Of a DNA stretch of 64,000 nucleotides, positions 63,823 through 63,999 are shown piece after piece. Within the stretch, counting starts at the first letter, position 1, and the number at the start of each line of letters is the position of its first letter. Position numbers and translations under genes: made by a program. A model generated the notes under the pieces. It saw only the letters and a list, made by a program, of their open reading frames with translations. It was not told the DNA's origin and searched no databases. Source of the DNA: Perna viridis (taxonomy: Eukaryota); contig CM074518.1 in assembly GCA_037379345.1 (NCBI GenBank), positions 4,526,001 to 4,590,000 on the forward strand, read 5' to 3'.

Positions 63823-63999
63823 TCATTTCCCGTTTTTCATACTGCACAGCTGGAAGCACTTAACAACAAAGGCGGATACTTTTGTCATGCAGAACGACGG
63901 TGAGTTTTCCTTCAGACAGTTGTTATAAGGACCTTGGAACCTACGGCTACAGTTTTGTTGACAAGTGGCGGATACAGCAATAACCAACTGACAGATCAT
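63823..63999 (-). CDS. Small secreted cysteine-rich cationic peptide (5' end may lie outside the window)
   Basis: MICQLVIAVSA-TCQQNCSRRFQGPYNNCLKENSPSFCMTKVSAFVVKCFQLCSMKNGK*. It has a signal-peptide-like end (AVSA), six Cys spaced 3-10-8-10-3, and a terminal GK. At 58 aa it is below the ORF-track cutoff. Confidence 0.72.
   Translation of the reverse strand: MICQLVIAVSATCQQNCSRRFQGPYNNCLKENSPSFCMTKVSAFVVKCFQLCSMKNGK

Follow-up and report, generated by a model that had tools for sequence, protein, structure and literature searches.

A short minus-strand open reading frame (ORF) at the end of a 64,000-nucleotide (nt) stretch of the Perna viridis genome (contig CM074518.1, positions 4,526,001 to 4,590,000; hereafter, the window, meaning this whole stretch) raises the question of whether this mussel makes a cysteine-rich secreted peptide of an unnamed kind, and what such a peptide would be for. 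An earlier reading of the letters (hereafter, the original prediction) had proposed a 58-codon ORF for a secreted, cationic, amidated helical hairpin. We conclude that the ORF belongs to a real, transcribed, spliced gene with a non-coding first exon, that its product (P0001) appears to belong to an unnamed family of disulfide-stabilised helical hairpin peptides, and that its most likely role is host defence, to which we assign a probability of roughly 45%.

The minus-strand frame at 63999-63823 translates as originally given, and its landmarks are all present. AVSA is followed by a 47-residue segment with six Cys in mirror-symmetric spacing (3-10-8-10-3) and seven Lys/Arg against one Asp/Glu (net +6, pI 9.3), which ends in Gly-Lys-stop six residues past Cys6. 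The ORF itself is longer than 58 codons: the ATG at 63999 is Met10, the true start lies 27 nt upstream of 63999, past the window end, and the neighbouring genome stretch completes an ORF of 67 codons plus TGA in a single coding exon. The start codon stands 5 nt after a pyrimidine-rich AG acceptor. Secretion is likely, the signal being read from the sequence and kept in the family; the basic start of the predicted signal peptide falls outside the window.

At least half of the words sampled from the gene were present in 19 of 24 listed runs, from seven studies; they were next to absent in three, and two raw-read runs were unindexed. None of the 19 holders is recorded as RNA. Four runs were examined, and in two of them (X4 and X5, from two studies) a spliced contig spans the gene, each time connecting L002:2031 to L002:3390 over an intron of 1358 nt with GT-AG ends. 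Contig depth across exon 2 was 275 and 701, compared with 0-4 within the intron. Because the assembly holds a single DNA copy of the gene, the splice joint does not come from a retrocopy. Exon 1 contains no ATG. From 12.2 and 10.4 million records of two raw RNA runs, a single stray read apiece was recovered, in each case non-exonic; given that the gene is covered in some runs and lacking in these, its expression looks restricted.

A chance ORF, or a piece of a larger known protein, is a very improbable source of the frame. The lack of any annotation or family match would fit such an origin, as would two metagenomic relatives (P0010 and P0011) called with long C-terminal tails, but the transcript is spliced with a non-coding first exon, a paralogue and homologues are conserved, and the tails fit a TGA read as Trp (see below). 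The findings on which the original prediction had staked itself thus came out in its favour: there is a transcript, homologues exist, and neither a larger parent protein nor a named-family match emerged. The original prediction did not include the true start, the non-coding exon upstream of it, the paralogue or the bacterial repeats described below.

The peptide family and its predicted fold

The paralogue (P0002) lies at C8:7.233 Mb, 2.6 Mb from P0001, and is 36% identical to it. Its Cys spacing is 3-10-10-10-3, an acceptor stands 3 nt ahead of its ATG, and its tail reads Gly-Arg-Lys followed by a 12-residue extension. Its coding sequence (CDS) was uncovered in the four runs examined, with a depth of at most about 0.1 in X20. 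A profile of P0001 and P0002 gave seven matches at E ≤ 0.001 among 1.84 billion representative proteins, including a homologue (P0006, from an ENA assembly; E 8e-10) that is 41% identical to P0001, has the spacing 3-10-9-10-3 and ends in Gly. The extra N-terminal residues of P0006 look like a translated acceptor, and P0010 and P0011 appear to be the P0006 peptide again, or its alleles. Both of their tails open with Trp at the end of P0006 and are mutually out of register after it, which suggests that a prokaryotic gene caller read TGA as Trp, and the tails would then be a read-through artefact. P0006, P0010 and P0011 may all be host DNA inside metagenome assemblies. A search with a three-sequence alignment returned P0006 alone among five candidates and P0011 among 275 longer ones, and a word-based protein search with the 58-residue piece gave no match. 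Neither P0001 nor P0002 is present as an exact sequence among 15 billion proteins, suggesting that short single-coding-exon genes may be missed and go uncalled.

All members keep a signal-VSA followed by TC-x3-C-x10-C-x(8-10)-C-x10-C-x3-C, with VSA-TC invariant in the three aligned, and every member has six Cys. The mirror frame of the original prediction is therefore kept in the family, but its x8 centre is not, since this central loop has 8, 9 or 10 residues. In each pair of the three distinct members, none of 2000 Cys-fixed shuffles reached the observed non-Cys similarity score, so that the three are related beyond the Cys frame. The amidation signal, i.e., Gly before basic residue(s) or at the C-terminus, is also borne out, as it occurs in all three in a different form each time (G-K-stop, G-R-K-extension and G-end); the amide is predicted.

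Across 329 kb of fetched sequence, including overlapping loci and scanned in all six frames, the Cys pattern was unique to the gene and its paralogue. Pattern and tblastn searches found no tandem copies in the ~200 kb surrounding the gene or the 100 kb surrounding the paralogue. Other genome matches were rejected: one at C1:50.56 Mb has an internal stop and resembles the end of the window's retroelement ORFs, one at C9:44.79 Mb has lost its frame and contains a stop, and those on C10 and C13 (E 3-7) lack the Cys pattern. Further weak matches on C6, C15 and C4 (E 0.2-7) were left unread. A scan of JGI metagenomes, with 196 pattern matches, yielded one locus, which is bacterial and fits the pattern by chance.

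Given the mature sequence alone, AlphaFold2 predicted helices at residues 2-20 and 23-44 (mean pLDDT 79, pTM 0.50), in line with the helical hairpin first proposed; both helices have a hydrophobic moment of 0.35. For the Cys pairs 2/41, 6/37 and 17/26 the positions add up to 43 each time, with the turn at 21-22 in the centre, and equal pair sums are preserved in every homologue. Steps of 4 and 11 residues place the Cys on a single helix face. With the Cys on one face and equal sums about the turn, the mirror spacing matches the geometry of a hairpin with nested disulfides, which would pair as 1-6, 2-5 and 3-4. Such spacing is expected of any nested-disulfide hairpin, so that the claim of a new family holds for the frame, which is nameless, but not for the fold class, which is known. 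It is the loop between the helices that changes length, both in the mussel family and in 52 bacterial repeats.

Foldseek gave no match for the mussel model. VIA-align returned generic hairpins only (best Z 6.4, rmsd 1.7 over 46 residues, 4% identity); neurotoxin B-IV, acrorhagin and attractin were outside its best 50, which excludes nothing. An unnamed cluster in the ESM Atlas, at 0.75 for P0001, is a lead only. The sequence matches among PDB chains were taken as chance, namely a lactoferrin fragment (E 0.97) and, at E 0.6-1.5, TOM1 and GGA3 chains and 6OKD. The last, a transferrin-receptor-binding cystine-dense peptide that we take to be an engineered cytochrome bc1 hinge scaffold, has terminal C-x3-C motifs and aligns over the whole mature region (E = 1.5, non-significant), although its inner Cys spacing differs.

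Named peptide families and bacterial repeat proteins

The placement of the peptide outside named families was upheld in Pfam, NCBIfam, PDB and the literature. In Pfam and NCBIfam, no model came near its cut-off with the mussel peptides (P0002 reached E 0.029 with one model, far under its cut-off). No description of the family was found in the literature searched, which left uncovered most subscription journals, figures and supplements, where lists of mussel transcripts or proteomes may include it, and within the same scope six exact peptide words led to no paper.

Mytilins have an eight-Cys array ending in C-x-C-x-C-x2-C (PMC7168163). P0001 resembles them in a signal peptide that leads directly into a C-x3-C start, in a cationic mature peptide and in the host group (PMC7168163). 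Mytilins and myticins, both of the cysteine-stabilised alpha/beta (CS-alpha/beta) type, also have an anionic C-terminal extension and a four-exon gene, whereas here there are six Cys spaced 3-10-8-10-3, two exons were seen with the CDS in one of them, and P0001 has no PF10690 match. Compared with mussel CS-alpha/beta peptides (mytilins, myticins and defensins) and MgCRP-I more broadly, there is no C-x-C or CC, no predicted beta strand, and only two copies. MgCRP-I combines a C-C-CC-C-C array with a pro-region ending in KR/RR (PMC4558851); adjacent Cys and pro-region are both absent in P0001. Big defensins and macins have a beta-containing Cys domain of 54-94 residues and a Pfam match (PMC10608444), in contrast to 47 residues, an all-helical model and no Pfam family here.

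The PF10690 search itself found six places in the P. viridis genome, all on contig C6 and three above cut-off, and none in 14 control genomes. They form a mytilin-like cluster at G000:C6:3.63-3.69 Mb (L038-L042), on both strands, with one match containing stops. Five were translated: the CCC motif described for Perna mytilins (PMC7168163) occurs in L038, L040 and L041, plus L042 from its own frame, while L039 is without it. These loci mark the host as a mytilid mussel.

Closer likenesses are found among all-helical hairpins. Plant alpha-hairpinins and CS-alpha/alpha peptides (EcAMP1, MBP-1, kappa-KTx and conotoxin vil14a) have antiparallel helices that each bear a C-x3-C motif, pair their Cys in a nested manner and are small, secreted and often cationic (PMC7191063, PMC11722136). 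Our model has the same arrangement of motifs, with Cys2/6 in helix 2-20 and Cys37/41 in helix 23-44. The known peptides have four Cys and short helices, whereas in P0001 a third pair lies inside the other two, 11 residues from each C-x3-C, and the helices span ~20 residues; there is no sequence match. Neurotoxin B-IV, acrorhagin I and the coral U-GRTX-Esi20 are also disulfide-crosslinked two-helix hairpins, as is predicted here (PMC11722136, PMC11896702). U-GRTX-Esi20, with 48 residues, three disulfides and an intronless coding region (PMC11896702), is compared by description, without its Cys spacing, and is the comparison likeliest to reduce the novelty of the family.

A deterrent or inhibitor directed at predators, parasites or fouling larvae, with an ion channel or a protease as its target, is accordingly one candidate role, as the fold class includes B-IV, acrorhagin I, kappa-KTx and trypsin-inhibiting hairpinins (PMC11722136, PMC7191063) and U-GRTX-Esi20 is of much the same size and disulfide number (PMC11896702). 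B-IV and acrorhagin I contain four disulfides, a sequence search of solved structures at E ≤ 10 matched none of these peptides, and there is no copy expansion. Mussels are not known to have a venom apparatus, and we regard this role as unlikely.

The remaining six of the seven profile matches (P0003-P0005 and P0007-P0009) are unannotated bacterial proteins of 459-1014 residues that contain 52 tandem units of the same frame. Units were matched as 3-10-n-10-3/4, to which all 52 conform by construction; n is 9 in 40 of them and up to 24 in the others. The unit has the form C-x3-C-x10-C-x9-C-x10-C-x3/4-C, often with Thr ahead, and there are 4-14 per chain with Pro-rich linkers. A signal-like stretch opens several chains; a trypsin domain occurs in one, and one matches dockerin weakly. 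A relative of P0008, 63% identical, is encoded in a Planctomycetota genome (L044:4001-7057). Two units were modelled as two hairpins (pLDDT 94). Foldseek gave no match to this model at E ≤ 0.001 (viscotoxin C1, E 5.3 over 22 columns), the ESM Atlas gave no usable match, and neither Pfam nor NCBIfam has a model of the unit. This unit, predicted as beads on a Pro-rich string, merits definition as a family of its own.

The Cys frame and the predicted hairpin are common to the bacterial units and the mussel peptides; the former differ in being acidic (mean -4 per unit), tandem, in some cases fused to trypsin- or dockerin-like domains, and without an amidation signal. When scored against a profile built from the 27 units whose spacing is exactly 3-10-9-10-3 (25 others were excluded), the mussel peptides reached 27-30 bits, compared with 48-59 for true units. 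Cys-fixed shuffles reached the mussel scores in 0, 0 and 1 of 1000 cases, and reversed mussel peptides, which retain spacing and helical periodicity, scored 4-14 bits. With one Planctomycetota unit, chosen for its similar ending, the peptide gene was the sole match in the 723-Mb genome (E 0.61). These tests carry a bias, because the mussel profile had been used to pick the bacterial proteins and because helix-capping residues depend on direction. Convergence is the probable explanation and common ancestry a doubtful one; the shared frame raises a testable question of transfer versus convergence. It is more doubtful still that the mussel peptides are a free, amidated single-unit form, by descent or gene transfer, of a disulfide-ladder hairpin module that Planctomycetota and other bacteria repeat in tandem within secreted proteins, and that bivalves thereby gained a first antimicrobial peptide family that is all-helical and disulfide-stapled.

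Candidate roles of the peptide

In host defence, the signal peptide would be cleaved after Ala20 and the chain would fold into a two-helix hairpin held by a ladder of Cys1-6, 2-5 and 3-4 pairs. A carboxypeptidase would trim the last Lys and the amidating enzyme would use the Gly, leaving a 45-residue amide. This rigid cationic hairpin, with basic residues on both helices and a hydrophobic second helix, could then bind an anionic microbial surface or another microbial target at the body surface or in the haemolymph. Small secreted Cys-rich cationic mussel peptides are typically antimicrobial (PMC10608444), as are most four-Cys alpha-hairpinins (PMC11722136, PMC7191063).

Several observations weigh against this role. 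Mussel defence peptides that are hypervariable and multi-copy are unlike this gene, of which five genome searches found two copies and no third (a lower bound, as the searches score best candidates only); the mytilin-like cluster of the same genome has six matches. There were no coding differences in the two runs covering the gene, all three exon 2 differences being in the 3' untranslated region (UTR), and X4 and X5 were taken as RNA by guess. The net charge (Lys/Arg minus Asp/Glu) is +6 in P0001, +3 in P0006 and +1 in P0002; the cationic character originally proposed therefore describes P0001 but does not appear to be a trait of the whole family. Conservation is highest in the first helix, with 8-9 of 17 residues identical compared with 3-6 of 16 for the second helix, as would suit a fixed binding partner; an anionic pro-piece is absent. 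The model was built from one sequence at a pTM of 0.50 and gives no S-S distances. We hold defence at this level, and signalling within reach of it, because the charge varies, there are two copies, coding variation is lacking in the two runs and there is no anionic pro-piece.

The next candidate, possible but less probable than defence, is a ligand that signals through a mussel receptor, whether as a neurohormone, a paracrine factor or a water-borne pheromone, with the disulfides stabilising it in haemolymph or sea water. Aplysia attractin is a six-Cys helical pheromone. The amidation signal is retained in three forms, the two copies are not co-expressed in the runs examined, and the conserved first helix, the variable charge and the lack of coding variants would all fit a ligand; an acrorhagin orthologue has been reported in sensory neurons (PMC11896702). 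On the other side, P0006 is just 41% identical to P0001, low for a neurohormone, and neither Pfam nor NCBIfam gave a match to a known neuropeptide family. The high contig depth in two runs, although depth is a poor measure, and the spread of holders over seven studies suggest that the product is abundant in a tissue that is commonly sampled.

Abundant, selective expression would also fit a structural or redox helper of secreted material such as byssus, mucus or shell matrix, and mussel foot glands are reported to secrete Cys-rich proteins. The mature part has one Tyr and no low-complexity repeats, however, all six Cys fit internal pairs, and an amidation signal has no clear use there; we consider this slightly less likely than a deterrent function.

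The CS-alpha/beta scaffold is common among Cys-rich mussel defence peptides, and a 2025 paper states that no amphipathic alpha-helical antimicrobial peptide of bivalves had yet been described (PMC12294457). An all-helical, three-disulfide, amidated family would thus be a new scaffold in bivalves, whether as a defence peptide or as a ligand, and its size of 45 residues permits direct synthesis and assay.

Feature positions and neighbouring sequence

Table 1 Features of the peptide gene. Plain numbers are window positions; window = L002 + 62000, where L002 is G000:C8:4588001-4598000.
Feature	Position	Strand	Remarks
CDS, in-window part	63823..64000	-	Whole CDS G000:C8:4589823-4590026, 26 nt beyond the window; covered by contigs of X4 and X5
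Second half of predicted 20-residue signal peptide	63967..64000	-	Hydrophobic core and V-S-A cleavage motif; read from the sequence
Predicted mature peptide	63826..63966	-	47 residues; Cys 2/6/17/26/37/41; predicted helices 2-20 and 23-44
Gly-Lys ahead of stop	63826..63831	-	Likely amidation signal; would give a 45-residue amide if used
Exon 2, in-window extent	63515..64000	-	Covered by contigs
Exon 2 beginning, beyond the window	L002:2031	-	
Intron, GT-AG	L002:2032-3389	-	1358 nt, in the 5' UTR
Non-coding exon 1 (or longer)	L002:3390-3474	-	
TATAAA	L002:3530-3535	-	~60 nt upstream of the longest contig
AATAAA	63448..63453	-	Candidate polyadenylation signal, putatively used; ~370 nt past the stop

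Elsewhere in the window, minus-strand exons at ~5400-51500 encode LRR, cadherin, two F5/8 type C, ephrin-receptor-like/EGF, thrombospondin type 3 and TSP C-terminal domains, and look like one large mosaic extracellular gene of unusual thrombospondin-like architecture. A 330-residue open frame at 59247-60239 (minus strand) is rich in Ser and Asp, ends in a basic C-terminus, lacks a Pfam match and is probably the main exon of a separate gene adjoining the peptide gene. Decayed retroelements were found at 265-2675 (minus strand; GIY-YIG, Penelope-like) and, within the mosaic gene, at 31578-34391 (plus strand; endonuclease/reverse-transcriptase pieces). Short tandem repeats at 45687-46035 and 57033-57275 give Cys- or Tyr-rich frames that are probably non-coding.

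Just upstream of exon 1, L002:4540-6340 and 6600-9000 hold a diverged ~60-nt tandem array and a decayed stretch resembling a long-terminal-repeat retrotransposon, and the long ORFs of the next 90 kb are mostly mobile-element-like. Two C1q-domain exons (L021:6809-7240 and L022:1589-1999) lie ~35-40 kb from the paralogue.
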